This document shows, piece after piece, positions 25,346 through 59,763 of a stretch of DNA of 64,000 nt. The stretch spans positions 480,001 to 544,000 of the forward strand of contig CAWIIB010000001.1 in NCBI GenBank assembly GCA_963836075.1, written 5' to 3'. The DNA comes from an uncultured Acidobacteriota bacterium (GTDB lineage Bacteria; Acidobacteriota; JAQAZP01). The number at the start of each line of letters is the position of its first letter. Within the stretch, counting starts at the first letter, position 1. A program made the translations under genes and the position numbers. The notes under the pieces are model-generated. The model saw only the letters and a list, made by a program, of their open reading frames with translations. It had not been told where the DNA came from and searched no databases.

Positions 25346-25360
25346 AGGCACAACGTTATA

Positions 25361-27628: not shown

Positions 27629-28089
27629 TGCAATTTTTTTGACTCCTCCCCGCCCATCGGTCGATGGTGGAGAGAAGTGGATCCTTCTGCTTGGCCGGCC
27701 GGCCGGCCGGTTGTTTTTATCGTGGTCACCGCGCCGTAAATAATCTGCCGGGTGTTGTCATAATCTACTGCGGCTCAAGGCCTGAATTTCGTTCGTGAAG
27801 TCATGGGCACAGAGACCTTCATGGATGCCCAGGCCCCAATACCAACGACTAACTCATTATACATCCAACATTTACTGCCGTCCAACCCTGTTGCCGGCGA
27901 CTGGAACAGCCAGGCACTCTGCGCTGATATGATCATAATTCACAGGGAGTTGATCTGATGCGTGTCTCGCAACCAGAAGAGTTCGTCGGGTGGTGGGAAG
28001 CCGTCTCCTCCATCAGGGACGGCAATCCCCGAGAGGTCGAGGGGCTGATCGAACGGATTCACCCCGACGGGCGGTCTGCTGTTTACTCC

Positions 28090-29100
28090 TCATTGCCGGC
28101 AGCGCAGTTCAAAGATGATCGTCGGCGCCATCAACCTCAGGGCGGCCGCGCTGAAGTTGTTCCCTGCCCTTCCTGACGGCCAGCCGTCGATGGTCAGGCG
28201 AACGATGCTGTTCGTGTCCAGCCGGCTGAATTCCCTGTTCAGCAAGGCTTTCAGTTCCAACTCTTCGAGACTGCTCACCTGCAGTTCAAGATCCACCATG
28301 GGGCTGGATGGCAGGGGAATGAAGCGCTCGCCGGTGATAAGCCCACGGCCGTCCTCCTTGCCCGCCAGGTCGAGCAGTATGTATCCCTTGGTCTCGTCCT
28401 TCTCGGCAAAGGCGGTGCGCTCGGTTGAACCGGGGTAGATCACCGGGGCGGGCAGGGGGCGTTCCTGCAGATCGTGTGTAAGGGTTTGCTGACGGTGAAT
28501 ATGACCGGAAAGCACCGCGGCAAACCCTTCCGGGATCATGCGGCCCGGGATGATGTCGTCGCCTCGGCGGAAGGTGTAGTTGTGCGGTCCAACCGTCGCC
28601 CCTTCCACGGACTGGTGCATGCAGAGCAGGCGGATGCCGGCCTCATGTCTGTCCCAGCCGGTTTCGGCCAGCAGACGGGGGAAGGCCTGCCGGATGCCGT
28701 TCCGCTGGCAGGGGAAGCCGGAGATGGCCAGCCGCTCCCCTTTCGCTTCGAAGATGAAGGTGCCGGGCTTGCGGAAGACATGGAGGTTCTCCAGGTCCCA
28801 GAGCAGGGGCAGCGGTGTTGCCGATCGCTCGTGGTTGCCGGGCACCAGGACGAAGGGGACACCGCGGTCGGTTACCTCGGCGATGATGTCCAGGGCTTTC
28901 TGCACCACGTCGGGCCGCACCTTGGAACGGAAGAAGATGTCGCCCCCGTGGATCACCAGGTCCACATCGCCTTTGCGGGCCGGTTCGAGGGCCCGCCTGA
29001 AGTTGTCGTAGAACTCGGGGCCGCGGCGGCGGCGCTCCACCCTGGGCCGCAGGGGGTCGTCAAACCCGAGGTGCGTGTCGGCAAGGAAGAGAACGCGCAT
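28090..29100 (-). CDS. SbcD/Mre11-like metallophosphoesterase nuclease
   Basis: ADTHLG, GGDIF, PGNHE, MHQ, SGHIH, YPGS. Confidence 0.88.
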   Translation of the reverse strand: MRVLFLADTHLGFDDPLRPRVERRRRGPEFYDNFRRALEPARKGDVDLVIHGGDIFFRSKVRPDVVQKALDIIAEVTDRGVPFVLVPGNHERSATPLPLLWDLENLHVFRKPGTFIFEAKGERLAISGFPCQRNGIRQAFPRLLAETGWDRHEAGIRLLCMHQSVEGATVGPHNYTFRRGDDIIPGRMIPEGFAAVLSGHIHRQQTLTHDLQERPLPAPVIYPGSTERTAFAEKDETKGYILLDLAGKEDGRGLITGERFIPLPSSPMVDLELQVSSLEELELKALLNREFSRLDTNSIVRLTIDGWPSGRAGNNFSAAALRLMAPTIIFELRCRQ

Positions 29101-30731: not shown

Positions 30732-30735
30732 GGTC

Positions 30736-32760
30736 TCAGCCCCCGGTGCGCTTGGCGCCGCGGCAGGCGTCCCAGTAGATGTAGCCGCAGAGCAGCAGCA
30801 CCAGCACGAGGCCCAGCCAGTTGCCGAAGGCACCGTTATTGGCAAGGTCGGGGATCAGACTGATGCCGAACTCGCTGTCGAGGTAGACGAAGACCGCACC
30901 CACCACTCCCATCAGCGCGCCGCCGGCGATGAAGCCCGAGGCGATCAGCGTGCCCCGCTCGTTGCGCTTGCGGCCCAGTTCCTCGTCATCCCCCCCGCTC
31001 TTCCTGACAAAGTGTGCCACCAGGGCGCCCAGCAGAATCGGGGAGTTGAGCTCGATGGGCAAATACATCCCCAGGGCAAAGGCCAGGCCGGAGATGCCCA
31101 GCATCTCCACGATCACCGCGATCACCGCGCCCACGCCGTAGAGCATCCAGGGCGCCGACTCGCTGACCATCAGGCTCTCGATCACCGCGGCCATGGCGTT
31201 GGGCTGGGGCGCCGGCATGGGGTTGGGGTGCAGCGGCCCGGGGGCGAAACCGTAGGTGTGGGCCAGCAGGATGATGGCGAAGCTCACCGCCACGCCGGAG
31301 ACGGCGCAGCCGAGGATGTTGCCCCACTGGATGGTGCGCGGTGTGGCGCCCAGCCAGTAGCCGATCTTGAACTCGGTGACCAGGGTGGCGGTCATGGAGA
31401 GCGCGGTGCAGACCACCCCGCCCACCAGCAGCACGGCCAGCATGCCGGCCTCGCCGCCCACGCCGGCCTTGATCAGCACGATACAGGTGACCACCAGCGT
31501 CATCAGGGTCATCCCCGAGATCGGCGTCACCCCGATCATGGCCACCGCCCGGGCCGAGACGCTGGCGAAGAGGAAGGAGATGACCAGGGTGATGGTCAGG
31601 GCAATGAGGCTGACGTAGGTGGCGTTGGGCAGACCGTCGAGCACCGAGAAGCGGAAGTAGAGCCAGAGCAGGACCACGGTGAGCGCCAGCAGGCCGAGCA
31701 CGGTGGACATCCTGATGTCGAGGTCGGTGCGCTGGGTGGAGGGCGCGGCGCCCTTGCTTCTGCTGCGGAAGATGTCGGCCATGCCGCTGGTCAGCGCGCT
31801 CCAGATCACCGGGGTGAGCTTGAGGATCCCGATCAGGCCGGCGGCGAAGATGCCGCCGATGCCGATGAAGCGCACGTGATCGAAGAAGATGTCCTCGGCC
31901 CCGAGGCCGGCGGCGGAGACCGGCAGCCCGTCAGGGCCCGGGGGCAGGCCGATGGCGGCCAGCAGCGGCACCAGCACGAACCAGGAGAGCATCGACCCGG
32001 CAAAGATGATCGCGGCGTAGCGCACGCCGATGATGTAGCCCAGGCCGAGAATCGCCGCCGAGGTGTTCATGGAGAAGACCGCCTTGGCCTTGTGGGTCAG
32101 CGGCCCGCAAAAGCCGATCATGGCTGTGGTGAAGTCCTCCTTCCAGGCGTGCATCGAAACGGCGAGGAAGTCGTAGATCCCGCCCACGAGCGCGGCGATC
32201 ACCAGCACTATGGCCTGGCGGCCGCCGCTCTCCCCGGCCATCAGGATCTCGGTGGTGGCCGTGCCCTCGGGGAAGGGCAGCTGGCCGTGCATGTCGGCGA
32301 CGAAGTAGCGTCGGAAGGGGATGAGGAAGAGCACGCCCAGCACGCAGCCGAAGAAGGGCACCACGAAGAGCTGGAACGGGCTGGTCAAATGGTCGATGCC
32401 CAGGACGTAGAGCGCGGGCAGGGTGAACACCGCGCCGGCCACAACAATACCCGAGGTGGCGCCGATGACGATGACGTTGACGTTCTGCAGCAGGGGTGAG
32501 CGGAGCTTGGCCAGGGTGGAGTAGCCGATGGCCAGAATCGCGATAGGTATCGCAGTTTCTATGCCTTGGCCGACCTTGAGGGCGAGATACGCGGCCGCGG
32601 CGGAGAAGAGCACGGCCATGATGATCCCGTAGGTGATGGTATATGGCGTCACCTCGCGGACCCTGGCATCCGCCGGCACCACCGGCCGGTACACTTCCCC
32701 TTCTGCAAGCTCTCTGAACGCGTTTTCCGGCAGTCCGGTCCCGCCCTTGTTCTCGTCCAT
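30736..32760 (-). CDS. OPT family oligopeptide transporter
   Basis: FTLPA, LPFPEGTAT, PISGM, KIGYWLGATP, APQ, G.YLP; many TM helices. Confidence 0.92.
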   Translation of the reverse strand: MDENKGGTGLPENAFRELAEGEVYRPVVPADARVREVTPYTITYGIIMAVLFSAAAAYLALKVGQGIETAIPIAILAIGYSTLAKLRSPLLQNVNVIVIGATSGIVVAGAVFTLPALYVLGIDHLTSPFQLFVVPFFGCVLGVLFLIPFRRYFVADMHGQLPFPEGTATTEILMAGESGGRQAIVLVIAALVGGIYDFLAVSMHAWKEDFTTAMIGFCGPLTHKAKAVFSMNTSAAILGLGYIIGVRYAAIIFAGSMLSWFVLVPLLAAIGLPPGPDGLPVSAAGLGAEDIFFDHVRFIGIGGIFAAGLIGILKLTPVIWSALTSGMADIFRSRSKGAAPSTQRTDLDIRMSTVLGLLALTVVLLWLYFRFSVLDGLPNATYVSLIALTITLVISFLFASVSARAVAMIGVTPISGMTLMTLVVTCIVLIKAGVGGEAGMLAVLLVGGVVCTALSMTATLVTEFKIGYWLGATPRTIQWGNILGCAVSGVAVSFAIILLAHTYGFAPGPLHPNPMPAPQPNAMAAVIESLMVSESAPWMLYGVGAVIAVIVEMLGISGLAFALGMYLPIELNSPILLGALVAHFVRKSGGDDEELGRKRNERGTLIASGFIAGGALMGVVGAVFVYLDSEFGISLIPDLANNGAFGNWLGLVLVLLLCGYIYWDACRGAKRTGG

Positions 32761-47512: not shown

Positions 47513-48511
47513 GTGCCACAGACAGACCCGCAAATCTCGGTGGTCATCCCGGCCCACAACGCCTCCCATACCATCGTCCGGGTGCTGGAGGCCCTGCTGG
47601 CCAGCGTGGACGTTGCGCCGGAGGTAGTGGTGGTGGACGACGGCTCCACCGACCAAACAGCCGCCCTGGTGGAGCGTTTCCCGGTGACCCTGATCCTCCG
47701 CACCGTCTGCGGCGGTCCCGCGGCAGCCCGCAACCAGGGGGTGGCCGCTGCCGCGGGACACGTCGTGGTTTTCATCGACGCCGACGTGGAGGTGGGCTCC
47801 CACACGCTGGCCCGGATCAAGAGCTACATGGCTGAGCACCAGGAGGTGGACGCCATCTTCGGCTCCTACGACAGGTCCCCGGCGGGCCGGAGATTTATCT
47901 CGCGCTACCGCAACCTGATGCACCACTTTGTCCACCAGCGGGGCAGTGTGGACGCCGGGACCTTCTGGTGCGGCTGCGGCGCGGTGCGCCGGGAGGTCTA
48001 CCTCGAACTGGGCGGCCTGCGGGAGGACTTTGCCCGGCCCTCCATCGAGGACATCGAGTTCGGGGCCCGTTTGGACGCGGCGGGCCACACGATCCACCTG
48101 GTGAAGGAGATCCAGGTCAAGCACCTCAAGCAGTGGTCTCTTTGGCAGATGATCCGCACCGATTTCCGCGACCGCGCCATCCCGTGGACCCTGCTGTTAC
48201 TCAGCGGGAAATGCCGCCGGTGGGACCTCAACCTCCAGCTGCGGCACCGGGCGAGCGCCGCGGCCACCTTTGGCGGGCTGGCCTCGCTGGTGCTGGCCCT
48301 GGCGGTCCACCCGCTCTTCCTGCTGCCGCTCATGGCCTGCGCCCTGGTCTTCCACCTGGTGAACCGGGACCTTCTCCGCTTTTTCGTGCAGAGCGAGGGT
48401 CTGGGCTTCGCCCTGCTGACCCTGCCCTTCCTGCTGCTCTTCTATGTCTATTCCAGCCTGGCCTTCGGCACCGCTCTCCTGCTCCACCTCTTCGGCAAAC
48501 GTCTCGGGTGA
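47513..48511 (+). CDS. GT2 glycosyltransferase with C-terminal TM helices
   Basis: SVVIPAHN, VDDGSTD, ARN.G, FIDAD, IEDIE. Confidence 0.88.
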   Translation: MPQTDPQISVVIPAHNASHTIVRVLEALLASVDVAPEVVVVDDGSTDQTAALVERFPVTLILRTVCGGPAAARNQGVAAAAGHVVVFIDADVEVGSHTLARIKSYMAEHQEVDAIFGSYDRSPAGRRFISRYRNLMHHFVHQRGSVDAGTFWCGCGAVRREVYLELGGLREDFARPSIEDIEFGARLDAAGHTIHLVKEIQVKHLKQWSLWQMIRTDFRDRAIPWTLLLLSGKCRRWDLNLQLRHRASAAATFGGLASLVLALAVHPLFLLPLMACALVFHLVNRDLLRFFVQSEGLGFALLTLPFLLLFYVYSSLAFGTALLLHLFGKRLG

Positions 48512-48522
48512 CGGAGGTCCGC

Positions 48523-50811
48523 ATGCCGCTCACATCCCTGCTGCTGGTCCCGCTCTTTTGTCTCCTGCCCGGACTGGCCTTTCTTGTCCTCACCGGCCCC
48601 GCTTCGGCTCACAGTTCCACCGGGAGCCGGGACCGCTACGCCGGTCCGGCCGACTTGCTCTTCCTCTCGGTGGCGCTCAGTGGCTGGATGGCCCAGACCC
48701 TGGCCCTGGCCGGCTGGTTCACCCTGCCGGCACTGGCGCTCACGGTCACCATGCTGAGCCTGGCCGCCCTCTGCGCACACCGGGGGATCCGGTCCGGCTT
48801 TGTGCAGGCTCGCCGGTTGGCGTTGTCCGCTGTCCGGCCCCGGCCGGCGGCACTGGCGGCGGGGCTGTGCGTTCTTCTGCTGGCCGTGTTGCTCTACCAT
48901 CCGCCGGGGGTGGCCCAGCTGGACGGCCACCCCGCTCCGGCCATCAGCAGCCTGGGCATCCACCTGGCCCGCACCGGGGCTCTGCCCCGGCTGGCCCCCG
49001 GGAGCGGCCTGGACGGCGCCGCGGAGGCCATGCGTGCCGCAGCCGGTCCCGGCCTGCTCTTCCCGGCCTGGACCGGCCTGCTGCAGTTGCTGGGCGGCTC
49101 AGCCTGGTCGGCTGCCGCACCCGCCATCTTTGCCGCCCTGTCTCTGGCCGTGATCTTCGGTCTTGGCCGGCACGCCACAGGCAGTGCCTGGTTCGGCGCC
49201 CTCTTGCTGCTGGCCCTGGGCCTCAACTACCCCCAGGCCTGGCTGGCCCGGGTCAGCGTGCCCGAGTCGGCTGCCCAGTTTCTGGTGCTGGCCTCGGCCC
49301 GGTTCTATCTTCGTTCCCGGGACGGGCTCCCAGGAGTGGGGGCCGCGGCGGTCTGTCTGGGCGCCGCCCTGCTCTGCGCTCCCGCCCTGCTCTGGTTCAC
49401 CCCCCCCGCCCTGCTTTTGCTGCTGGCCCTGCACACCGCCGGATCGCCCGCCCGGCGGCGCCGGGCCGTGCTGTTCAGCCTGGGGGTCCTGCCCTTCCTG
49501 GCCCAGGGCTGGCTCCAGGCGCTCCTTCCGGGGATCGGCCATGCCGTGCTGCCGGCGCTGCCCGGCGGTTCGGCCCACTGGATGGTCTGGTACCTGACCC
49601 TGCCCTTTCTGGTGCTGCTGGCCTGCGGTCTGCTGCTGATGCTGGTCCGGCCGGCATGGTCGCTGCGGCTGGTCGGCGACCTCGGGCCGCTGATCCCGCT
49701 GGCCCTGGTCAGCCTGCCCGTCCTGCTCCGCTCCCCGGGCAGCGACGCGGTCCAGCCGTGGGCCGCTCGGCCGTTCACCGTGGCACTGATCCCATCCTCC
49801 CTTTTCGTGGGACTTTTCTTCTTTCACCGCACGTTGCAGTGGCTGCGCCACCCCGCGCTCCGTCTGATCTGGTGCTCCTTCCTCGCCGTTATGCTGGGCC
49901 TCAACCTGGCCAACCTACTGCCCATGGCCACCGGCCGGCCCGGGCAGGGGGCCGTCTCCCTGGTGTGGGAAACCGCCCGGCCCCTGGCCCACCAGGGCCG
50001 GCCGTTCACCGCCGTGGTGGAGGCCGGTCTCGGCAGGCAGGGTCTGCACAGCGCACTGACCGGTCTGCACGGCATCCGCTCCTTCTCCCTTGGCGGCCAC
50101 CACCCGGACCGCGAGCGGTTCCACGCCCTGGTGCGCGAAAATGCCGCGACCGGCCGCCGCACCGCCCTGGTGATCGAAAATGGGCTCTTCACCCCGGATC
50201 CCGCCGGGGTGACCCTGCGCCCGCTGGCCACCGCCGAAGGAACGCTGGTCCAGCTCCCCCCGCTCACCGACCACCTCCCCTCTTCGGTGGTCACCCGGCT
50301 CCGGCGGCTGCAGATCTTCGAGGCGTTGCCCGCCGCCCCCCAACAGCCAACACACCGCGCTCCCCTGACCGTGTGCTGTGGGGTCTACCAGGAGGACTGG
50401 CCCTGGCTGGACAGTGGTTTCCACGGGATATCCAGCGCCGGCGGCCGGCCCCATCGCTGGACCGCGAGCCTGGCCCGGCTCCGGGTGCCGTCCTGGGCTG
50501 CAGCTGTGGAACTGACCCTGGGCGGTTTCCGTCCTCCCGGCGCCCCTGATGCGTTTGTTTCGGCCGGTTTTGCCGGCCACCCCCCCACGGTGAACCGACA
50601 GCTGCCCCGGGTCGGCTTTGTCACGTTCCGCGTCTCCCGTCCTGTTACCGGCCGCGGCTCTCTTTCGTCCTTCCTTGAGCTTCACAGCACCGTTTTTGAC
50701 CCGCAATCCTGGTTCACCGAACTGGACGGAGATCAGCTGGGCCTGCAACTGGCCTCCATGACCTATTTCCCCGCGGACCGGTCCCCCCCGGTTCCCCCTG
50801 CCGTTCAATGA
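48523..50811 (+). CDS. Polytopic membrane protein, possible GT-C glycosyltransferase with periplasmic C-terminal domain
   Basis: More than 10 hydrophobic helices; soluble tail with a HRWT..A motif; follows GT2. Confidence 0.5.
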   Translation: MPLTSLLLVPLFCLLPGLAFLVLTGPASAHSSTGSRDRYAGPADLLFLSVALSGWMAQTLALAGWFTLPALALTVTMLSLAALCAHRGIRSGFVQARRLALSAVRPRPAALAAGLCVLLLAVLLYHPPGVAQLDGHPAPAISSLGIHLARTGALPRLAPGSGLDGAAEAMRAAAGPGLLFPAWTGLLQLLGGSAWSAAAPAIFAALSLAVIFGLGRHATGSAWFGALLLLALGLNYPQAWLARVSVPESAAQFLVLASARFYLRSRDGLPGVGAAAVCLGAALLCAPALLWFTPPALLLLLALHTAGSPARRRRAVLFSLGVLPFLAQGWLQALLPGIGHAVLPALPGGSAHWMVWYLTLPFLVLLACGLLLMLVRPAWSLRLVGDLGPLIPLALVSLPVLLRSPGSDAVQPWAARPFTVALIPSSLFVGLFFFHRTLQWLRHPALRLIWCSFLAVMLGLNLANLLPMATGRPGQGAVSLVWETARPLAHQGRPFTAVVEAGLGRQGLHSALTGLHGIRSFSLGGHHPDRERFHALVRENAATGRRTALVIENGLFTPDPAGVTLRPLATAEGTLVQLPPLTDHLPSSVVTRLRRLQIFEALPAAPQQPTHRAPLTVCCGVYQEDWPWLDSGFHGISSAGGRPHRWTASLARLRVPSWAAAVELTLGGFRPPGAPDAFVSAGFAGHPPTVNRQLPRVGFVTFRVSRPVTGRGSLSSFLELHSTVFDPQSWFTELDGDQLGLQLASMTYFPADRSPPVPPAVQ

Positions 50812-50851
50812 GAATTTGGCGTGGCGGCCTGTCCTGCCGGGCTTGATTCCA

Positions 50852-50944
50852 TTGACAACCAGTTGGTGGTTGTGATAATTCTAACCGTGAAAAATAAAAG
50901 GCTTATCGGTTTGAGCCGACCCCCGGGATCAACAACTTGTTGAT
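50852..50944 (+). promoter_or_regulatory. Putative promoter and palindromic operators of the cytochrome operon
   Basis: TTGACA-N16-GATAAT; ACAACCA-N5-TGGTTGT in the spacer; ATCAACAA-C-TTGTTGAT at 50928-50944. Confidence 0.5.
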
Positions 50945-51038
50945 TCCTCGGCCGGGCCGGCAGGAGCGGACCGAAATTACGGGCGCACCAGGGAGCGTCG
51001 ACCACCTGAATCATAATTCCATCAAGGAGACCCGTGCG

Positions 51039-52334
51039 ATGACCTTCAGAGGATCCAGACTGGGCGGTTTAACGGCTTTTATCCTGCTCGCCGTATTCAT
51101 CACCCTCCTCTCCCAGGTGAACGCCTCGGCCATTCCGGCATTTGCCCGGAAGTACGAGACATCCTGCACCACCTGCCACGTGATCTACCCCAAGCTCAAC
51201 GCCTATGGCGAGGGGTTCCGCAACAGCGGCTACCGCTTCATCGGCAATGACGAGGAGCTGGTGAAACAGGCGGACATCCCCATGGGCGCCGACGCCTGGA
51301 AGCATGTCTTCCCCCACGGTACCTGGCCCGGGGCCCTGCCCCGCTACGTGCCGCTGGCCATCCGCGGAGCATTCGGCGCGGCGTACTGGCCCGACGAGGA
51401 ACTGCGCAAGAGCAGTTTCCAGACTCCCTGGGAAGCGTCGCTCTACTGGGGCACCACCCTGGGCGAGAAGATCTCCACCTACGGCAAGATCAACCTCGAC
51501 GGCGGCAGCCTCGACCGGGCCTTTGTCCGCTTCAACAGCATCTTCGGCAACACCCTTGGCGAGAACTCGTTCAACATCAAGGTGGGCAAGATCGAGACGG
51601 CCATCATCCCCTGGTCCCTGACCCGCTTCATCGGCATCTCGGTGCCGCTGGTCTACGGGGTCAACCGCAGCCAGGGGGACTACACCTACGGCATGCGGCA
51701 GAGCGGCATGGAGGTCGAAGGGATCCTGGGACACCACTTCAAGTACGCCGTCGGCGCCGCCAACGGCAGCAACGGCTTCCGTGACGACAACAACGCCAAG
51801 GACTTTTACGGCCGCCTGGCCTACAAGTTCGGCGGCATCGGCTTCGACGGCTACAGCAAGGCCCTGGAGGAGGGCGGCGAACTGCCCCAGACCGACAACT
51901 GGACCGACACCTCCTTCACCCTCGGTATTTCCGCCTACGACGGGAGGGAGACGATCACCGACGAGGTGGACAACGACGTCACGCGCTATGCCCTGGACGC
52001 CCGGCTGCAGCTGGGCAGCCTCGACCTCTTCGGCATCTACATCGACGAGGAGGACAGCAATCCCTTCCCCGCTTCGACGGATCCCTGGGATTCCTCCACC
52101 TGGTTCGTCCAGGCCGACTACGTGTTCCTGCCGTGGATGGTGGGCTACCTGCGCTACGAGAACCTGGAGGACGCCATCGACCCGCGGGACGCCCCGCTGG
52201 AAGATCTGACGCGGTTCGTGCCCGGCCTGGTGATGGCCATCCGGGCCAACGTCAAGATCACCGTGGAAGCCCAGCTCTACCAGGACGATTTCAACGGGGA
52301 TGTCTACCAGGCGATGCTCGACCTGGCCTTCTGA
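51039..52334 (+). CDS. Cyc2-like fused monoheme cytochrome c / outer-membrane porin
   Basis: Signal peptide, then AIPAFARKY..SCTTCH...PKLN..G..F...GY; amphipathic beta strands; terminal Phe. Confidence 0.8.
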   Translation: MTFRGSRLGGLTAFILLAVFITLLSQVNASAIPAFARKYETSCTTCHVIYPKLNAYGEGFRNSGYRFIGNDEELVKQADIPMGADAWKHVFPHGTWPGALPRYVPLAIRGAFGAAYWPDEELRKSSFQTPWEASLYWGTTLGEKISTYGKINLDGGSLDRAFVRFNSIFGNTLGENSFNIKVGKIETAIIPWSLTRFIGISVPLVYGVNRSQGDYTYGMRQSGMEVEGILGHHFKYAVGAANGSNGFRDDNNAKDFYGRLAYKFGGIGFDGYSKALEEGGELPQTDNWTDTSFTLGISAYDGRETITDEVDNDVTRYALDARLQLGSLDLFGIYIDEEDSNPFPASTDPWDSSTWFVQADYVFLPWMVGYLRYENLEDAIDPRDAPLEDLTRFVPGLVMAIRANVKITVEAQLYQDDFNGDVYQAMLDLAF

Positions 52335-52338
52335 TCCG

Positions 52339-52366
52339 CCGCCGCCGGCCCGCGCCCCGGCGGCGG
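52339..52366 (+). other. Intercistronic GC-rich hairpin
   Basis: 10-bp stem CCGCCGCCGG / CCGGCGGCGG with no U-tract. Confidence 0.5.
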
Positions 52367-52412
52367 AGATCCCGACTCATTTTCAGCAAGGGGATGATCG
52401 ATGAGAAGAGGT

Positions 52413-53030
52413 ATGAACAGCCTGCTGAGCAGAACCCTGAAGCTGACCGCCGGCATCCTGCTGCTGGGCGCGCTGCTGGCCGCCGCGCCACCGGCACATG
52501 GCGGCGACCTGGTGGGCACGGTGACCGTCAGGGGCGTGCGCAGCCCGGAAGACGTGGTGATCTACCTGGGCCAGAAGCTCCCGGCGGACCAGCTGACGCT
52601 TCCCGCCGAGAACCCGGTGATGGACCAGCGCAAGCTGATCTTCATCCCCCACGTGATGTGCGTGTTGCGGGGCAGCACGGTGGACTTCCCCAACAACGAC
52701 GAAGTGCCGCACAATGTCTTCTCCCCCAGCCCGGTAAAGAAATTCAACCTCGGCACCTACAAGGTCGGGGTGGTCAAACAGGTGACCTTTGACAAGCCGG
52801 GGCTGGTGCCGCTGCTCTGCACCATCCACCCGGAGATGTCGGCGTTCATTCTCGTGCTGGAGACGCCGCACTACGCCATCACCGGCAAGGACGGCACCTA
52901 CCGCATCGCCGGTATCCCGGCGGGGTCGTACAAGATCAAGACCTGGCACGAAAAGCTGAAACCGGCGGTGGAAAACGTGGAGATCCCCGAGACCGGGGAG
53001 GTGACCCTCGATCTTTCGCTGAGGAAGTGA
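52413..53030 (+). CDS. Periplasmic cupredoxin (type-1 Cu) plus carboxypeptidase-regulatory-like domain
   Basis: Signal peptide; PHNVF and CTIHPEM supply His/Cys/His/Met ligands; G.Y.I..IPAG.Y. Confidence 0.82.
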   Translation: MNSLLSRTLKLTAGILLLGALLAAAPPAHGGDLVGTVTVRGVRSPEDVVIYLGQKLPADQLTLPAENPVMDQRKLIFIPHVMCVLRGSTVDFPNNDEVPHNVFSPSPVKKFNLGTYKVGVVKQVTFDKPGLVPLLCTIHPEMSAFILVLETPHYAITGKDGTYRIAGIPAGSYKIKTWHEKLKPAVENVEIPETGEVTLDLSLRK

Positions 53031-53037
53031 GGAAGAG

Positions 53038-53604
53038 GTGGACGCGCACGAAGAGCAACGGCCTGAGGAGAACGGGGCGCAGGACGGCGTGCCGGCGCCG
53101 GTCCTCAAGCGGCCCCGCCACCTCTGGGTCACCCGCCGTGATTTCTTTTCCATGGCCGGCTGGAGGCTCTTCTGGGCGGCGATGATCGTCTCGGCGGTGG
53201 GCCTGGTGCGCTTCTTCTTCCCCCGGGCGCTCTACGAGCCCCCCACCACCTTTTCCGCCGGCTCCCCCGACGACTACCAGACGGGGAAGGTGAGCCAGAA
53301 GTATCTCAAGACCGAGCGGACGTTCATCGTCAAGACCGAAGACGGGATCTACGCCCTGCACGGCAAGTGCACCCACCTCGGCTGCACCGTGCTCTGGAGC
53401 GCGGAAGAGCGCAAGTTCAAATGCCCCTGTCACGGCAGCGGCTTCCATGCCAGCGGGATCAACTTCGAGGGGCCGGCCCCCCGGCCGTTGGAACGGTTCA
53501 AGATTTCTCTGGGCCGCGACGGCGCCATCGTCGTCGATCGCGGCCGGATGTTTCGGGAGGAGCGCGGTGAGTGGGAGGAACCCGACGCGCTGCTGAATGT
53601 CTGA
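53038..53604 (+). CDS. Rieske [2Fe-2S] subunit of a Rieske/cytochrome b complex
   Basis: Tat motif TRRDFF plus TM helix; CTHLGC and CPCHGS; GPAPRPL. Confidence 0.93.
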
Positions 53605-54412
53605 ACGAACTGGAAGACAGAAGAGCCTCTGGAAGCGGTTCAAGGAGACCGAGCTCTGGAAGTCCGTCTTTCGCCACGGGTACGAGGATACCCGCCGTAA
53701 CCGCTTCCTGCAGATCACCAGCAACCTCTTTCTCCACCTCCACCCGCCAAAGATCCAGCCCCACGCCCTGCGGTTCACCTACACCTGGGGCATGGGCGGA
53801 ATCTCGTTCCTGCTCTTCCTGATTCTCACCGTCACCGGCGTGCTGCTGATGTTCTACTACTTTCCGGACACCGCCCGGGCCTACCAGGACATGAAGGATC
53901 TCAAATACGTGGTCCCCTTCGGCCGCCTGCTGCGCAACATGCACCGCTGGGCGGCCCACGGCATGGTACTCACCGTCTGGTTCCACATGCTGCTGGTCTT
54001 TCTCCACGGCGCCTACCGCGCCCCCCGCCAGTTCAACTGGTGTATCGGCGTGATGCTGCTGGTGATGACCCTGCTGCTCAGCTTCACCGGCTACCTGCTG
54101 CCCTGGGACCAGCTGGCCTTCTGGGCCATCACCGTGGGCACCAACATGGCCACCGCCACGCCTGTGATCGGGGCCGAGGGCCCCTTCTCCATCGCCAGCC
54201 CGGGGAATGACGTACGCTTTGCCCTGCTGGGCGGAAAATCGGTGGGGGCCAACGCCCTGCTCCGCTTCTACGTCTGGCACTGCATCGCCATTCCGCTCAT
54301 CGCCTCGGTGCTGATGGGTCTGCACTTCTGGCGCGTGCGCAAGGACGGCTTCTCCCGGCCGCACCAGCGGAGCTCCCGCTACTCCCGGGAAAAGAAAGGC
54401 AGCGCCCAATGA
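53597..54412 (+). CDS. Cytochrome b/b6 N-terminal subunit
   Basis: TG.LL..YY, MHRW..H.......[20 protein letters not shown]...H. Confidence 0.93.
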
Positions 54413-55125
54413 GCGATCACCAGGACACCAACGGACGGGCGCCGCTGCGCAAGGTGGAAGCCTGGCCCCACCTGGTCTCGCGGGAGATGCTGGCCGCCCT
54501 GGCGGTGCTGGCCGTGCTCCTCGCCTGGTCCTGGTTCATCGACGCTCCGCTGGAAGAACCGGCGAACCCCAACACCACACCCAATCCGGCCAAGGCGCCC
54601 TGGTATTTCCTCGGCCTGCAGGAGCTGCTGGTCTACTTCGACCCCTGGCTCGCCGGGGTGGTTCTCCCGTGCCTGATCGTGCTGGGGCTGCTGGCCCTGC
54701 CCTACGTGGACAACAACGTCCGGGACACCGGTGTGTACTCTTTCCACCATCGCCGGTATGTGATCTCGGGATTTCTCTTCGGCATGCTGCTCTGGACGGT
54801 ACTGATCATCATCGGGGTCTGGTTCCGCGGTCCGGGCTGGGCCTGGTACTGGCCCTGGGAGGACCAGAGCCTGCACAAACCGCTCTACGAGAAGGCCTGG
54901 AGCTTTCACCCCCTGCTGGGGCTGGCGACCCTCGCCTCCTACTTCGGCATCGGGTTCTACTTGCCCCAGCGAATGAATAAAAAACTGCTCACCGGCCTGG
55001 GCCGCTGGCGCTACTTCATCTCGGTGGGCCTGCTGCTGGTGATGCTGCTGATCCCGATCAAAATCGTCCTCCGGCTGTTGTTCGGAGTGAAATACATCCT
55101 GATAACGCCCTGGTTCAATCTCTGA
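54409..55125 (+). CDS. Cytochrome b subunit IV-like protein
   Basis: APL...[23 protein letters not shown]; extra TM helices. Confidence 0.88.
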
Positions 55126-55154
55126 CCACTGCGCAGGACTGGAGTTTGCTTTCC

Positions 55155-57647
55155 ATGATTCGCCGCTGGTTCTTCATCCTGATGGCCGTGAACCTGCTCT
55201 TTATCGGCCTCTTCTGCTGGGAGGAGTGGCGCCCGGAGTGGAAGGACCATTTCTGGCAGTACCGGGAGCTGAAGCTGGCCGCATTGCAGGGCGAGCTGGA
55301 ACAGGCCATCACCCGCCGGGATGCCGACGAGAACGGTCTGGACGAGCTGCGCCGGGCGCTGACCAGCGAGGAAGCCCGACTGGCGCACCCGGAGCAGAAG
55401 GCGGAGCTGGAGAAGATTACCGAAGCGCTGTCCGAGTCCCAGGAGCGGCTGGAAGACGCGGTGGACAACTACCAGAAGAACTACTCCCGCTACCAGACCC
55501 TGGAAATCCGCTACCACCAGATGAGCGACGAAAACCCGGACAAGGAACTGCGGGCGGCCGACCTGCGCAAGCTGGGCCTGCGGCTGGAGCACATGAAGTC
55601 CGAACAGGAGCGGATCATGGCCGAGGTGGAGGGCCATGACGGCCGGCTGGCCGGTTTCACCGGCGAGCAGCTCCGGCTGAACCGCCAGATCAAGCGTCTG
55701 GAAAGCGAAGTGGAGCAGTGGCAGAACAGCATCGTCAAGCTGGAAGCCCAGCGTCCGGCCATCGAGCAGATCAGCAACAAGGCCCTGGGCCGGGTGGACC
55801 GCTGCGTCACCTGCCATCTGGGTATCGACGATCCGCACTTCAACGACGCCCCTGAGCCGCTCCGCGCCCACCAGCCGAATTCCCTGAGCGACATCGGACT
55901 CTACCACCCGTTCAAGACCTACGGCTGCAGTATCTGCCACGAGGGTCAGGGCTTGGCCACCCGGCTGGCCGAGGCCTTCGGCCAGGAGGCGCACTTCCAC
56001 CAGCCGGTGCTGGGCAGGGACCTCTCCCAGGGCTCCTGCCTGCCCTGTCACCCGGAGCGGATCCCCCTGCCCGGCGTCCCGGCCCTGGACGCCGCCCCGC
56101 TGCTGGAGCGGGGGCGGCTGCTCTTCGCCGACAAGGGCTGCACCGGCTGCCACGAGACCAAACCGTTCAGCCACCTGACCCGCACCGGGCCCAAACTCAA
56201 CTCCCTCGCCCACAAGGTGCAGGGAGACTGGCTCTACCGCTGGCTGCGCAAACCGGACGACTATTTGCCCGGGACGCACATGCCCGACTTCCTGCTCCCG
56301 CCGGAGGAGATCCGGGAGATCACCGACCACCTGCTGCTGACCCTGCGGGAACAGCCACCGCAGCCTGCACCGCCCGCGCCGGGGGATCTGGACCAGGCCT
56401 ATGAAAACGGCAAGGCCCTGTTCCAGGTGGCCCGCTGCATCACCTGCCACGCCATCGAGGGTGTGGGCGGCACCATCGGCCCCGACCTCTACCGCTCGGC
56501 CAGCAAGCTCAACCGGGACTGGCTCTTCTCCTGGCTGGACAACCCGCCGGCCCACGACCCGCAGACCCTGATGCCCCACTTCCGCTTCACCGTTGAGGAA
56601 CGGCTGGACCTGGTGGAATACATCACCCAGGAGTTTATGGACTGGGACCTTCCCGACAGTCCCGACCCGGTGGAGGCAGCGGAACCGCTGGCGGAGAACT
56701 CTCCCCGCGGCGAGGCGCTGGTGCGCCGCTACGGCTGTTCCGGATGCCACGAGATGCCGGGCAGTGTGGACGGCCAGAAGGTGAGCACCGAACTGACCGA
56801 CTACGGGACCAAGACCGTGGACCTGCTCGATTTCGGCTGGGCCTGGGACGTGCCGCGCACCCGCCTCGACTGGACGATGACCAAGCTGCGCACGCCCCGG
56901 GTCTTTCGCGACACCCTGCTGATGCCCGACTACGGCTTTGACGAGGAGCAGATCCTCGCCCTGACCACCGTGCTGCTGGCGCTCAAGGGCTACACCCCGC
57001 CGGCGGACTACATCTACTACGTGAAACCGAAGTGCAGCCTCACCGGCCGGACCGATATACCACCGACCCTCTGGGGGCCGCGGATGGCCAGCACCCCGCC
57101 GGCCACCGCCTTCGACCAGCTGGTGGACGACCTGCGCTGCCGCTCCTGCCACCGCATCGGCACCTGGGGCGGTGACCTGGCCCCCGAGCTGGATCTCACC
57201 GGAAGCCGCTTCGAGGAGGAGTATCTGCGCTTCTTCCTCAAGACCCCGGAGGCCATCCGGCCGCTGCTGGTGGAACGGATGGTGCGGCTGAACCTCACCG
57301 ACCAGGAGGTGGACCAGCTGGTGCAGGGGCTCCAGTTCATGCTCACCGATCAGAACCGCGTACCCCCGGTGTCGCCTGACCCGGCCTGGTCCATCGCCCG
57401 GGGTGAAGAGCTCTACCAGACCCTCGGCTGCACCGGCTGCCACATGACCGGCTCCGAAGGCGGGACCTCGGGCCCCAACATGACCGAGGCCGGCCGCAGG
57501 CTGACTCTGGACTACCTGCACTCCTGGCTGCGCCACCCCCAGACGCTGGTGCCCACGGCCATCGAGCCGGACTACGGGTTGAGCGAGGAGGACGCCGGGC
57601 ACCTGGCCGTCTACATGAAGAGCCTGACCATGGAGGGCGGCGCATGA
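55155..57647 (+). CDS. Membrane-anchored octaheme cytochrome c with coiled-coil stalk
   Basis: Eight CxxCH motifs (CVTCH, CSICH, CLPCH, CTGCH, CITCH, CSGCH, CRSCH, CTGCH); N-terminal TM helix and long heptad-rich region. Confidence 0.9.
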   Translation: MIRRWFFILMAVNLLFIGLFCWEEWRPEWKDHFWQYRELKLAALQGELEQAITRRDADENGLDELRRALTSEEARLAHPEQKAELEKITEALSESQERLEDAVDNYQKNYSRYQTLEIRYHQMSDENPDKELRAADLRKLGLRLEHMKSEQERIMAEVEGHDGRLAGFTGEQLRLNRQIKRLESEVEQWQNSIVKLEAQRPAIEQISNKALGRVDRCVTCHLGIDDPHFNDAPEPLRAHQPNSLSDIGLYHPFKTYGCSICHEGQGLATRLAEAFGQEAHFHQPVLGRDLSQGSCLPCHPERIPLPGVPALDAAPLLERGRLLFADKGCTGCHETKPFSHLTRTGPKLNSLAHKVQGDWLYRWLRKPDDYLPGTHMPDFLLPPEEIREITDHLLLTLREQPPQPAPPAPGDLDQAYENGKALFQVARCITCHAIEGVGGTIGPDLYRSASKLNRDWLFSWLDNPPAHDPQTLMPHFRFTVEERLDLVEYITQEFMDWDLPDSPDPVEAAEPLAENSPRGEALVRRYGCSGCHEMPGSVDGQKVSTELTDYGTKTVDLLDFGWAWDVPRTRLDWTMTKLRTPRVFRDTLLMPDYGFDEEQILALTTVLLALKGYTPPADYIYYVKPKCSLTGRTDIPPTLWGPRMASTPPATAFDQLVDDLRCRSCHRIGTWGGDLAPELDLTGSRFEEEYLRFFLKTPEAIRPLLVERMVRLNLTDQEVDQLVQGLQFMLTDQNRVPPVSPDPAWSIARGEELYQTLGCTGCHMTGSEGGTSGPNMTEAGRRLTLDYLHSWLRHPQTLVPTAIEPDYGLSEEDAGHLAVYMKSLTMEGGA

Positions 57648-58204
57648 CCGGACGCCTGACAGCCTGGTGTCTCACCGCCCTGCTGCTGGCCGCCCTGCTG
57701 GCCTTCTGCGGCTGCACGGTGCAGGAAGAGACCGCTTCCGCACCGGCCGACGGCACCACGGTGCTCGACGGCACTGAAGCGCTGAACGGCACCGAAATGC
57801 TGTACGGGGACGATATCGAAGTGCTGGCGGTGGGCCCCGAGCTGACCCGCGGCGAGGAGCGGGGGCGGATGATCTTCCTCCACTTCTGCGCCCACTGCCA
57901 CGGCCCCTCGGGCGCCGGGGACGGCCAGAACTCCTACGGCCTGGAAACGGCTCCCCGGGACCTGCTGGCGGTGGAGATGGATGCCCTGAGCGACGAGCAC
58001 CTGAGGAGGGTGATCACCGATGGGGGCGCCGCCAACGGCCTCTCCCCGCTGATGCCGCCCTGGGGCCACACCCTGGAGCCCCACCGGATCAACGACCTGG
58101 TGGCCCTGATCCGTGTCCTGCCCGATCTGGAAGGATTCGAGGACGAGGATGCCGACATCCCCACCCTGGACGATGACGACGAGATGGACGACTTCAGCCT
58201 CTGA
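57644..58204 (+). CDS. Monoheme cytochrome c, probable lipoprotein
   Basis: LAFCGC lipobox-like; CAHCHG..G.GDG; MPPW distal Met; acidic tail. Confidence 0.85.
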   Translation: MTGRLTAWCLTALLLAALLAFCGCTVQEETASAPADGTTVLDGTEALNGTEMLYGDDIEVLAVGPELTRGEERGRMIFLHFCAHCHGPSGAGDGQNSYGLETAPRDLLAVEMDALSDEHLRRVITDGGAANGLSPLMPPWGHTLEPHRINDLVALIRVLPDLEGFEDEDADIPTLDDDDEMDDFSL

Positions 58205-58871
58205 CCGGTTCCACCCCCTGCCCCACCAGTTTTCCACCGGCATGGGCCTTCATGCGCAAGGCCGCATCGGCGGTGACCTTTTCCAGGTCGTCGCGGGCCA
58301 TCTCGGCCGGGGCAAAAAAGACAAAGAGGATATTGCGGGTCTCATCCCGGATACTGGTGCGCAGCGAGTCGGATGATGGGTTGCCAAAGGGCCCCTCCCC
58401 GTCGCTGAGGATCAGCCGCCCCTCCAGGTTCACCCGGCCCTTGTTGATCCCCTGGTAGCCGTCCCCGGGGCCGCCCAGACCGGCGGACAGCTCCCCGTGG
58501 AGCCGGTCGGTGTCGTAGAGCCCCACCGGCAGGGCCGCTTCCAGCGAGCAGATATTGGCCGTGTCCACCACGGTGTTGATGCGGTAGAGCGGCTTGCCGG
58601 TGATCACCCGGCGCAGCAGCGCCTCGGACGAGGGGCGGTACTTGGTGGGATCGATCCCCACCGCCCGGTAGAGGACCCGGGCCGGCCGGTTGCGGGGGCC
58701 CGCCTCGGCCGGAGTGGCGAACTTATGCTGCAAGCGGGTGCAGAGTTCGTCCAGGTCGAACTCCAGGGAATCCGGCGAGCATTGCGGGTCCACACCCTCC
58801 ATGCGGAACCAGCCCAGGCGAATGGTCCCGGCCAGGGACGGCTCGATGCGCAGCGCTGAGGGTTCACTCAT
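58194..58871 (-). CDS. B3/B4 domain protein (PheRS beta editing-like)
   Basis: GIDPTKYRPSSEALLRR, IN.VVD..N..S, G.YD, GPFG.P.SDS.RT. Confidence 0.88.
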   Translation of the reverse strand: MSEPSALRIEPSLAGTIRLGWFRMEGVDPQCSPDSLEFDLDELCTRLQHKFATPAEAGPRNRPARVLYRAVGIDPTKYRPSSEALLRRVITGKPLYRINTVVDTANICSLEAALPVGLYDTDRLHGELSAGLGGPGDGYQGINKGRVNLEGRLILSDGEGPFGNPSSDSLRTSIRDETRNILFVFFAPAEMARDDLEKVTADAALRMKAHAGGKLVGQGVEPVRG

Positions 58872-59058
58872 CCTCGCTCCTTTTCGTTCACCTCACTCTA
58901 GCGCATCAGTCCCCGGTCCGCCAACTGCCCGCTGCATTGGCGGTGTGAACCGTCTGTGCTAGACTCATCCGGTTCGTATCTGATTGCCGTGTACAGCTGG
59001 AGAGAGACAACCGTAATTGATCGCGACAGATACCAGGTTTGCCGGTGGCAGATGGCGG

Positions 59059-59763
59059 ATGGCGCTGCTCATCGCCATCATCGTCTGCTGCACCGCTCAG
59101 CCGGCCCCGGCCGGTGAGGACGCGGCGGTGACCCTGCTGCGCGACCTGCAGCAGCACCTGGGCGGCCTCACCGACTTCCGGGCCTCGTTCACCCAGCGGC
59201 TGCACACCCCCCACTCGGTCAACGAGCGGGAGGAGAGCGGCGTGCTCTACGTCATGATGCCCGGCCGGATGCGCTGGAACTACCTCGACCCGGAGCGCAA
59301 GGAGTTTATCTGCGACGGCCGGAAGGTCTGGTTCTACGAGCCGGAGGAGAGCGCGGTCACCATCTACAGCGCCGCGATCATCGGCGATAGCGGCACCCCG
59401 CTGCAGCTGCTCTTCGGTCAGGGAGACCTGCTGCGCGACTTCCTGGTCACCGCCGATGACACACCGGTGCGGGCCGAATCCCCGGAGGGGGTGATGGCCC
59501 TGGTGCGCCCCCGGGAGGAGGACGCCGCCTTTGTCCAGGCGCACCTGGAGATGGTGGCCAAGCCGGTGCCGCGGCTGGTACGGCTGATCGTGGTGGACCC
59601 GCTGCGCAACAGCACCGAATACCGTTTTTCCGATTTCAGGGAGAACACCGGACTGTCCGTGGACTATTTCAGTTTCGAACCACCGCCCGGCACCGAGGTC
59701 TGGGAGGAACGGGAAAAGACTCCGGAGACACCGGCGAGCGGTGCACCGGCAAATAGCAATTGA
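59059..59763 (+). CDS. lolA: Outer-membrane lipoprotein carrier LolA
   Basis: Signal peptide; A.FTQ, G......PGRMRW.Y..P, DG..VWFYEP. Confidence 0.85.
   Translation: MALLIAIIVCCTAQPAPAGEDAAVTLLRDLQQHLGGLTDFRASFTQRLHTPHSVNEREESGVLYVMMPGRMRWNYLDPERKEFICDGRKVWFYEPEESAVTIYSAAIIGDSGTPLQLLFGQGDLLRDFLVTADDTPVRAESPEGVMALVRPREEDAAFVQAHLEMVAKPVPRLVRLIVVDPLRNSTEYRFSDFRENTGLSVDYFSFEPPPGTEVWEEREKTPETPASGAPANSN

Follow-up and report, generated by a model that had tools for sequence, protein, structure and literature searches.

The porin Cyc2 is the most widespread candidate iron oxidase, and the current picture of how it connects to the respiratory chain rests largely on co-occurrence in a handful of model iron oxidisers. 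A stretch of 64,000 nucleotides from an uncultured Acidobacteriota bacterium (positions 480,001 to 544,000 of contig CAWIIB010000001.1; hereafter, the window) bears on that link. At positions 51039–58204 of the window, a sequence-only reading had noticed seven genes for a Cyc2-like porin, a blue-copper protein, a Rieske/cytochrome b complex, an octahaem cytochrome and a monohaem cytochrome, and had proposed that a whole chain of electron carriers from the outer membrane to the quinone pool is hard-wired there in one unit. Do these genes belong together, has such an operon been described before, and in which direction would electrons run through it?

We found that the operon is a real, conserved and apparently undescribed combination of known kinds of parts. 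In a single unit it brings together candidate partners of Cyc2, namely the cupredoxin, the monohaem and octahaem cytochromes and the Rieske/cytochrome b complex, and related forms occur across phyla. Overall, we consider it fairly probable that the seven gene products make up one electron-transfer chain, which would connect the menaquinone pool with a small redox species dissolved in the surroundings of the cell. The operon also ties together two puzzles: the presence of Cyc2 homologues in Fe(III) reducers and in taxa not associated with iron, and the unexplained multihaem Rieske/cytochrome b complexes of anammox bacteria and Geobacter.

Organisation of the operon

The genes are co-oriented and closely spaced, several of them abutting or overlapping, as originally described: all seven lie on the + strand, and the gaps between them range from −8 to +66 bases (+66, +7, −8, −4, +20 and −4 in order along the operon). 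Each was delimited as an open reading frame (ORF), lengths being given in amino acids (aa).

50852–50879, + strand: sigma-70-like promoter candidate (TTGACA, 16 nt, GATAAT, TG-extended), about 160 bases 5' of the porin start
51039–52334, + strand: porin gene, ORF of 431 aa
52339–52366, + strand: GC-rich 10-bp hairpin, directly 3' of the porin stop codon
52401–53030, + strand: cupredoxin gene, ORF
53038–53604, + strand: Rieske gene, ORF
53597–54412, + strand: gene for the N-terminal part of cytochrome b, ORF
54409–55125, + strand: gene for the C-terminal part of cytochrome b (subunit IV-like), ORF of 238 aa
55146–57647, + strand: octahaem cytochrome c gene, ORF with a TTG start at 55146
57644–58204, + strand: monohaem cytochrome c gene, ORF

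In its database form, the octahaem cytochrome starts at the ATG at 55155 and has 830 aa. The seven proteins were scanned against the Pfam and NCBIfam libraries. The results were concordant for genes 3–7, the cupredoxin scored just below the cut-offs, and the porin was without a match. The cofactors that had been read from the sequence were all recovered: a CXXCH in the porin, type-1 copper ligands, Rieske motifs, pairs of b-haem histidines, and 8+1 c-haem motifs.

The promoter candidate agrees with the consensus at 11 of 12 positions and is the sole such site in 50400–59100; since shuffled sequences average 1.0 such site, it is the position that backs this candidate. A Shine-Dalgarno sequence, AAGGAG, precedes the porin ATG at 51039, and the scan of 50400–59100 revealed no + strand terminator-like sites inside the operon. 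The hairpin behind the porin gene may act as a stabiliser or attenuator; its folding was not significant relative to shuffled sequences (−38.7 kcal/mol for a 91-nt stretch, z = −1.72, with 7 of 200 shuffles folding as well or better). No RNA datasets were listed as matching 50800–58300, while 20 DNA datasets from 9 studies matched it partially, none of them with half or more of its words.

A Cyc2-type porin and its cupredoxin

The porin sequence had no match in Pfam, NCBIfam or the PDB. Of 5851 candidate proteins, 686 were relatives of it at E <= 0.001, and all named relatives among the matches listed are called "hypothetical protein". The same name is carried by the porin's three nearest clusters in a protein atlas; the fourth has Porin_O_P on 12% of its members, which is a lead only and agrees with the fold described below. 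The published hallmarks of Cyc2 were more informative. Keffer et al. (2021; PMC8406198) characterise Cyc2 proteins by a signal peptide and a single CXXCH, by 365 aa or more of length and by a 16-strand porin most like OprO/OprP. Two motifs flank the CXXCH, namely AXPXFAR[Q/K][T/Y] on the upstream side, described there as exclusive to Cyc2, and PXL on the downstream side, at four residues.

Each of these sequence and fold features was found in the window porin. Its N-terminus reads as a signal peptide, with a hydrophobic segment at residues 9–27 followed by ..VNASA/IPAF... The single CXXCH is C43TTCH47, preceded by A31-I-P-A-F-A-R-K-Y39 and followed by P51-K-L, and the C-terminal residue is Phe. 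An AlphaFold2 model of the protein has 16 strands (pLDDT 71.6, pTM 0.75), and its top Foldseek matches were OprP (2o4v) and OprO (4rjw), with E-values of about 1e-11. These features are shared by the relatives: across 23 aligned sequences the N-terminus reads AIPAFARKY-xTS-CTTCH-xxx-PKL, P33 and R37 are invariant, A31, A34 and F35 are conserved in at least 90%, and the C-terminal Phe is conserved as well. Three residues separate the AXPXFAR motif from the Cys in all 23 aligned members; PMC8406198 gives "5 amino acids upstream".

Judged by its N-terminal motifs, its length, the 16-strand model and the OprP/OprO fold matches, the porin deserves the designation Cyc2-like, and by these sequence and fold criteria it is best filed as a member of the Cyc2 family. 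In signal peptide, CXXCH with flanking motifs and 16-strand OprO/OprP-like barrel, it resembles Cyc2 of Acidithiobacillus ferrooxidans, Cyc2PV-1 of Mariprofundus ferrooxydans and Cyt572 of Leptospirillum. One paper places Acidobacteria homologues of Cyc2 near Leptospirillum Cyt572, and this placement hints at Cyc2 cluster 3. An ExtI-like porin was considered and rejected, as the porin had no NCBIfam match at E <= 0.01, a result to be read with the caveat that the presence of an ExtI model in NCBIfam was not established.

The second gene encodes what is predicted, from sequence and model, to be a secreted or anchored amicyanin-like cupredoxin. H104, C140, H143 and M146 form a complete type-1 copper site; 29 aligned homologues all have C140, H143 and M146, and at least 90% of them have H104. 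The loop C-x2-H-x2-M, which is of the amicyanin type, is present in 40 of the 42 ORFs of the cluster formed by porin-neighbour cupredoxins. Fold matches of the model (pLDDT 94) were led by amicyanin 1id2, pseudoazurin 3paz and plastocyanin 7pcy, with TM scores of 0.7–0.8 on the target, and a CarboxypepD_reg-like beta-sandwich follows C-terminal to the copper domain. Both domains scored slightly under the Pfam cut-offs (Copper-bind, 19.6 bits vs 21.2; CarboxypepD_reg, 31.7 vs 32.3). Conserved ligands, model and fold matches thus confirm that the gene encodes a blue-copper protein. A complex prediction for porin residues 28–431 with haem and cupredoxin residues 35–209 gave a score of 0.00, and was counted neither for nor against contact between the two.

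A b6-type Rieske/cytochrome b complex and its c-type cytochromes

Genes 3–5 are predicted to form a Rieske/cytochrome b complex of the b6 type, in which cytochrome b is split over two genes. The Rieske protein has CTHLGC at residue 111 and CPCHGS at 129, a Tat-like TRRDFF and one membrane helix. Its best PDB match was 9rk3 (E 1.4e-43, 152 bits; 69 of 117 aligned positions identical, about 59%), followed by 9rk4, which are Kustd1480 and Kuste4569 of Kuenenia, respectively (Table 1 of PMC12954380). The same source gives Rieske potentials of +335 mV for Kustd1480 and +303 mV for Kuste4569. As the window protein shares the Ser134/Phe136 pair with Kustd1480, its Rieske head is, by analogy, probably high-potential like that of its Kuenenia relative.

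In the N-terminal part of cytochrome b, four segments are hydrophobic and the haem-ligand histidines pair as H116/H130 and H228/H243; only two Cys residues occur, 149 and 229, so none near the N-terminus. This part scored 130.5 bits with Cytochrome_B and 269.1 with the ExtP model, whose cut-off is 290. The subunit IV-like protein has, by hydropathy only, four strong hydrophobic segments and one weaker one, and scored 28.6 bits with Cytochrom_B_C and 56.5 with ExtQ (cut-off 150). At residues 63–66 it carries A-P-W-Y, which presumably occupies the place of the Qo motif PEWY.

The octahaem cytochrome begins with an N-terminal membrane helix and a coiled-coil-like stretch of about 190 residues (weak SMC/Rad50-type matches), after which comes the haem region: four closely spaced CXXCH, then four class-I cytochrome c domains, with the motifs at residues 220, 261, 298, 332, 431, 531, 665 and 762. 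Eight CXXCH were also counted in 112 of the 120 octahaem homologues listed. Its score with the NCBIfam model ExtS was 77.3 bits, the cut-off being 100. The last gene of the operon encodes a monohaem class-I cytochrome c with one CAHCH; its signal sequence resembles that of a lipoprotein (..AFCGC..), and its C-terminal tail is very acidic.

The porin–cupredoxin pair recurs beside quinol complexes in several phyla

To see what surrounds such porins elsewhere, one genome per species was scanned. This gave at least 578 confirmed relatives, of which the best 80 loci were analysed. As labelled in their records, these loci belong to Acidobacteriota (Thermoanaerobaculia, and Holophagae including Geothrix terrae SG184), Ignavibacteriota, Bacteroidota, Myxococcota including Anaeromyxobacter, Gemmatimonadota, Zixibacteria, a Glassbacteria genome, Planctomycetes and others. 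In 77 of the 80 loci the porin is accompanied by a cupredoxin gene, which lies immediately downstream in 71 loci and immediately upstream in 4; in the other 2 it stands at a greater distance. Only three loci were without one, and in two of these fewer than 160 bases follow the porin.

Loci in which the porin is followed by 4.5 kb of DNA or more, 53 in all, were taken as informative; Rieske/cytochrome b genes were scored within 6 kb. The arrangements found were as follows.

Rieske, cytochrome b, subunit IV-like and octahaem genes within 6 kb: 26/53 informative porin loci
Monohaem gene in addition: 23/26 porin-linked Rieske/cytochrome b loci
Type I, with a GltD/Nfn-like flavoprotein of about 600 aa (Fer4_20, Pyr_redox_2, Fer4_7) between the cupredoxin and Rieske genes: 24/26
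Type II, without the flavoprotein, as in the window: 2/26 (L080, L089)
Genes of the alternative complex III (ACIII) type, with pentahaem and molybdopterin/FeS proteins (ActB-type): 6/53, 5 of them without Rieske/cytochrome b (Pfam check on L064)
NapH-like Fer4_5 membrane protein with a COX2-like cytochrome: 2/53 (L020, L026)

Neither a Rieske/cytochrome b complex nor an ActB-type cluster was present in 22 of the 53 informative loci. Some of these 22 have other quinol-handling genes, such as an NrfD-containing fusion (L074) or the NapH-like protein (L020, L026); the NrfD-containing fusion occurs in some Myxococcota loci (checked on L074). A nitrous-oxide reductase cluster, a thought prompted by the taxa in question, was also considered and rejected, as the extra gene in the relatives encodes the GltD-like flavoprotein and not NosZ.

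By record labels, the junction of porin pair and Rieske/cytochrome b genes was seen in Acidobacteriota, Ignavibacteriota, Bacteroidota, Myxococcota, one Glassbacteria genome and one Planctomycetia genome. Closer to the window, the same gene order was found in two further species of its genus, up to the contig ends, and in genome G011, which represents another family of the phylum, a type II seven-gene cluster and a type I eight-gene cluster occur together (L093, L095). With the same order recurring in the genus and in distant phyla, the arrangement is more than chance. The co-conservation of porin and cupredoxin with Rieske/cytochrome b genes, on which the sequence-only reading depended, was thus observed in 26 of 53 informative loci and in several phyla. 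Its further claim that the unit lacks a terminal oxidase also held, for the operon itself and beyond: no COX1 or qNOR homologues were found within about 10 kb of 90 porin loci, using A-type COX1 and qNOR probes, with which cbb3-type subunits could be missed.

Distance matrices from 27 loci were correlated among porin, cupredoxin, cytochrome b and octahaem (Spearman 0.16–0.70); because kinship confounds such correlations, they were not used as evidence of co-evolution.

Several observations were made alongside. Regulators flank the porin–cupredoxin pair in 32 of the 80 loci (for example, L053:5475–9992), comprising a Cache/HAMP/PAS histidine kinase, a sigma-54-dependent response regulator and often a single-domain receiver; no sensor kinase, sigma-54 regulator or receiver genes adjoin the window operon. 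Metal-related genes, for Fe2+-transport (PF10634), YtkA-like and cation-efflux proteins, were noted in or beside the pair (L087:8496–9590; L020:6236–6664; L014:2517–3458). Finally, porin, cupredoxin and octahaem are 67–74% identical between L041, in a metagenome-assembled genome (MAG) labelled Betaproteobacteria, and L037, in an Acidobacteriota MAG, a likeness that reflects either transfer of the whole cluster or a mis-binned contig.

Porin-less forms of the complex are common in the phylum

A second survey was anchored on the Rieske protein. Relatives at E <= 1e-25 were present in 150 of the 401 sampled genomes of the phylum (a tally that includes the unpublished genome G025), and 20 high-scoring loci outside the window's genus and G011 (L132–L151) were analysed. 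A unit of Rieske, cytochrome b, subunit IV-like protein and cytochrome c was found in 17 of the 20, and the cytochrome c had eight CXXCH in all 16 such loci checked. None of the 20 loci had the porin, and none had the monohaem gene. Downstream of the octahaem gene, a cupredoxin-like gene was present in 7 of the 20, with the C-x2-H-x2-M loop in 5 of those 7. The Rieske/cytochrome b–octahaem complex with a copper partner is therefore a common unit in the phylum. In the window operon, the additions to it are the Cyc2-type porin, a cupredoxin of its own and the monohaem cytochrome.

Could the porin–cupredoxin pair, then, merely have landed beside a housekeeping complex III operon, with no functional coupling between them? 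The wide occurrence of the porin-less unit just described would fit such a history, as would the 22 informative porin loci with neither a Rieske/cytochrome b nor an ActB-type cluster. Both facts count against a single chain, and because none of the 20 loci carries a porin, the link of the complex to the porin is not obligatory. However, the same junction recurs across several phyla, only 7 bases lie between the cupredoxin and Rieske genes of an operon free of internal terminator-like sites on the + strand, and the monohaem gene tracks the porin-linked form (23/26) and not the porin-less form (0/20). We regard an uncoupled neighbourhood as highly improbable. The proposal that the whole chain is hard-wired in one unit thus stands in so far as porin, cupredoxin and Rieske/cytochrome b genes recur together, and must be relaxed in so far as the Rieske/cytochrome b–octahaem part often occurs without the porin.

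Comparison with known systems

No published description of a Cyc2–cupredoxin–Rieske/cytochrome b operon, or of a porin–cupredoxin pairing, was found in the literature searched, supplements excluded. Cyc2 homologues as such have been reported from Ignavibacteriaceae, Bacteroidetes, Aminicenantes and Krumholzibacteria. The suggestion that the architecture had not been characterised before can be kept for this very operon, with the qualification that the ext cluster of Geobacter is a close precedent, in which a porin is clustered with a Rieske/cytochrome b complex.

In Geobacter sulfurreducens extHIJKLMNOPQS, the proteins ExtP, ExtQ and ExtS provide the best or near-best NCBIfam models for window genes 4, 5 and 6. 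The window proteins score below all of the cut-offs (NF040969–NF040971), and are thus related to these proteins but not equivalogs of them. Unlike the ext porin, the window porin carries its own haem and has no NCBIfam match; as described, the ext cluster has no cupredoxin, and has rhodanese-like and seleno-cytochrome genes instead. The inner-membrane part of ext (extMNOPQS) we take to be the same as Cbc6, that is, CbcMNOPQR or GSU2930–2935. A 2026 review describes the role of Cbc6 as still unknown.

The system of Acidithiobacillus (rus/pet) resembles that of the window in that its pathway includes both a blue-copper protein in the periplasm and a Rieske/cytochrome b complex. It differs in three respects. 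The window has porin, copper protein and Rieske/cytochrome b genes in one operon with no oxidase; its copper protein looks amicyanin-like by its fold matches and carries an additional beta-sandwich domain; and its complex, unlike the Acidithiobacillus pet complex, is of the split b6 type, with the octahaem replacing cytochrome c1. Hosts of the window type also depart from the Cyc2 model iron oxidisers, in that they have no RuBisCO match and in that futalosine genes suggest menaquinone.

According to PMC12954380, the Kuenenia complexes have a b6-like cytochrome and a subunit IV of increased size, together with cytochromes of six or eight haems and an NAD(P) oxidoreductase. In Kustd1480–1485 and Kuste4569–4574 of Kuenenia stuttgartiensis, as in the window operon, cytochrome b is b6-like with four helices, the subunit IV-like protein is enlarged, and cytochrome f is replaced by a multihaem cytochrome c. 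We take the inner complex of the window to be related to this kind and to work like it; the likeness is sequence-based for the Rieske protein, whereas cytochrome b and the octahaem were compared by description only. The NAD(P)/FAD/FeS subunit, a defining feature of these complexes, is shared with the type I relatives (24/26) and lacking in the window operon. Conversely, the window adds the Cyc2 porin, the cupredoxin and the monohaem cytochrome, and has no anammoxosome and no HAO-like partner.

Finally, like the cytochrome b6f–plastocyanin system, the window operon combines a quinol-oxidising complex with a small type-1 copper protein, and has a b6-type His spacing and a split cytochrome b. A copper partner is known from other quinol oxidising complexes as well, as ACIII hands electrons to auracyanin, a type-1 copper protein. 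Unlike cytochrome b6f, the window complex has an octahaem where cytochrome f would be, and its proposed chain would proceed to an outer-membrane haem-porin and not to a photosystem or oxidase. A Cys near the N-terminus, which holds haem ci, is a feature of cytochrome b6; this position is not matched in the window, whose cytochrome b has no Cys before residue 149. The b6f equivalog scores were also missed, by PetC (NF045928, 72.2 vs 250), cytochrome b6 (NF002990, 177.3 vs 325) and subunit IV (TIGR01156, 27.3 vs 127).

The host appears to respire, and has other complex III equivalents

The host genome measures 6.23 Mb in 10 contigs and is 94.7% complete. It contains ACIII genes adjoining SCO1 and an A-type COX1, a qNOR-like gene, a second cytochrome b–Rieske–heptahaem set, and two genes of the MqnA/D family of the futalosine pathway, which suggest a low-potential menaquinone. 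Twenty-nine ORFs have at least three CXXCH, the largest numbers being 37, 20, 19, 16 and 16, and the genome had no RuBisCO match. From this gene content, the host appears to be a respiring organism rich in multihaem cytochromes and not a plain fermenter; ACIII with its oxidase, the qNOR-like gene, the menaquinone genes and the many multihaem cytochromes speak against the peptide-fermenting organism that had been supposed. There is one copy each of the porin and of the matching cupredoxin. No NAD(P)/GltD-like oxidoreductase gene lies within 51039–58204, the nearest GltD-like matches being elsewhere in the host genome.

Host genomes of the other 26 porin-linked Rieske/cytochrome b clusters gave a similar picture. 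COX1 was found in 25 of the 26, the exception being G421; cytochrome b was found in all 26, with at least two matches in 24; and none had a RuBisCO match, in genomes of unstated completeness. Since the window's host has ACIII with an oxidase and the second cytochrome b–Rieske–heptahaem set besides, the porin-linked complex is a specialised copy and not the only complex III of its host.

The oxidases invite another explanation, in which the cupredoxin and monohaem cytochrome form a shared high-potential pool that is fed by a forward-running Rieske/cytochrome b complex and by an Fe(II)-oxidising porin and reduces the A-type oxidase encoded elsewhere, without any transfer between porin and quinone. 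Most of the data can be accommodated in this way: every part would keep its textbook role, and a heterotroph using menaquinone would need no uphill flow. The A-type oxidase of the host and the haem-copper oxidases of 25 of the 26 other hosts agree with this, and so does the cupredoxin-like gene in 7 of the 20 porin-less units (5 with the C-x2-H-x2-M loop), which makes it look as though complexes of this type are normally accompanied by a copper protein. Against it, the probes for A-type COX1 and qNOR detected no oxidase within about 10 kb of 90 loci, unlike in the Acidithiobacillus rus operon; host G421 has no COX1 match; and the presence of other complex III equivalents makes the porin-linked complex an additional copy, suggesting that it serves a partner of its own. 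We consider such a shared pool unlikely.

Direction of electron flow

In the chain that we favour, the b6-type Rieske/cytochrome b complex would trade electrons with menaquinol at the Qo site, and the Rieske head would in turn trade them with the membrane-anchored octahaem, a stand-in for cytochrome f or c1. The periplasm would be crossed via the monohaem cytochrome c and the cupredoxin, the latter docking at the periplasmic face of the Cyc2-type barrel. There, the single haem of the porin would meet an ion entering the narrow pore, liganded Fe2+/Fe3+ or perhaps liganded Mn. Run outward, this chain would oxidise menaquinol, conserve energy via the Q cycle and end on a soluble high-potential acceptor.

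Several observations favour the outward direction. Menaquinone together with a Rieske protein that is probably high-potential, like Kustd1480, would make reversal costly. RuBisCO was not found in the host or the 26 other hosts. The hosts are rich in multihaem cytochromes, and the cytochrome b scores near ExtP of the metal-respiring Geobacter. Lastly, the cluster occurs in Geothrix, which one paper names as an Fe(III)-reducing genus. For type I clusters there is a further reason, since an anammox-style bifurcation needs a high-potential sink.

Other observations weigh against this direction. According to PMC8406198, the members of the Cyc2 family characterised so far are all Fe(II) oxidases, through which electrons enter the cell. 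Cyc2PV-1 has a reported potential of +208 mV; if the window porin were near this value, the outward step from a Rieske protein and cupredoxin at about +300 mV would be slightly uphill, and an acceptor above about +0.3 V would be needed. The haem-copper oxidases of 25 of the 26 hosts, moreover, make an oxygen-linked role possible. Connectivity combined with net outward flow in this organism is thus a tentative proposal, to which we give somewhat less than even credence; the direction is its weakest step.

In the opposite direction, the porin would oxidise dissolved Fe(II) or Mn(II), and electrons would pass via cupredoxin, c-type cytochromes and Rieske protein uphill into the quinone by a reversed Q cycle, driven by the membrane potential. 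The same uphill scheme has been proposed for rusticyanin–CycA–PetI of Acidithiobacillus. Besides the Fe(II) oxidation by all characterised Cyc2 proteins reported in PMC8406198, this reading can point to the expected potentials, which climb from the outside toward the Rieske protein, to the porin pair adjoining quinone-handling complexes and never an oxidase, and to the Fe2+-transport-like and cation-efflux genes in or beside the pair in single loci. Its difficulties are energetic and mechanistic. With menaquinone and a Rieske protein near +335 mV, the uphill step would be about 0.4 V. With RuBisCO, the only carbon-fixation marker searched, missing from the host and 26 others, an autotroph-type reverse flow to NAD(P)H is not evident, and the anammox-style mechanism in the 24 GltD-containing relatives runs from quinol to Rieske. 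We hold inward flow to be rather unlikely.

The outward proposal can be widened to the relatives. A widespread module of Cyc2-porin and dedicated cupredoxin would plug into whichever quinol complex a lineage has, be it an anammox-type Rieske/cytochrome b–octahaem complex, either with an NAD(P) oxidoreductase or lacking it, ACIII or the NapH-like type, and give heterotrophs of sediment and soil, cultured Geothrix included, a high-potential outlet to dissolved metal complexes; in the GltD-like forms, quinol would be bifurcated to NAD(P)H with the outside as the sink. This generalisation is doubtful at present. If it were true, the module would supply the "energetically favourable reaction" said in the literature to be missing for the complex of the Kustd1480–1485 type. 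If outward flow were true, genome-scale calls of "iron oxidation" from Cyc2 matches would need revision for these lineages. Genetics may be possible, as a related cluster, of the eight-gene form, is present in a record labelled as a Geothrix terrae strain (L055). Geothrix fermentans reportedly respires best at very high electrode potentials, which was not used as evidence here.

Additional observations in the host genome and the window

Large multihaem ORFs of the host, with 37, 20, 19, 16, 16 and 10 CXXCH, were noted at C1:1898137–1902957, C1:1543417–1546245 and C9:1679421–1682658, and an octahaem gene adjoins an Alginate_exp-type barrel gene at C9:679.8–682.6 kb. The large ORFs and the octahaem/Alginate_exp pair are likely to represent further porin–cytochrome systems.

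Within the window, the downstream neighbour of the operon (58194–58871) lies on the opposite strand and is convergent with it. Just upstream, at 47968–50811, there is an ORF of 947 aa that is rich in Pro, Leu and Ala and has many hydrophobic stretches, with a GC content of 0.709 and an AT skew of −0.40. At a distance from the operon, GC content falls to 0.493 at 26001–28000, compared with about 0.65 on either side; minus-strand ORFs are present at 26038–26685 and 26636–27628, and an Rfam scan of 24000–31000 gave no match. This low-GC stretch may be foreign DNA.

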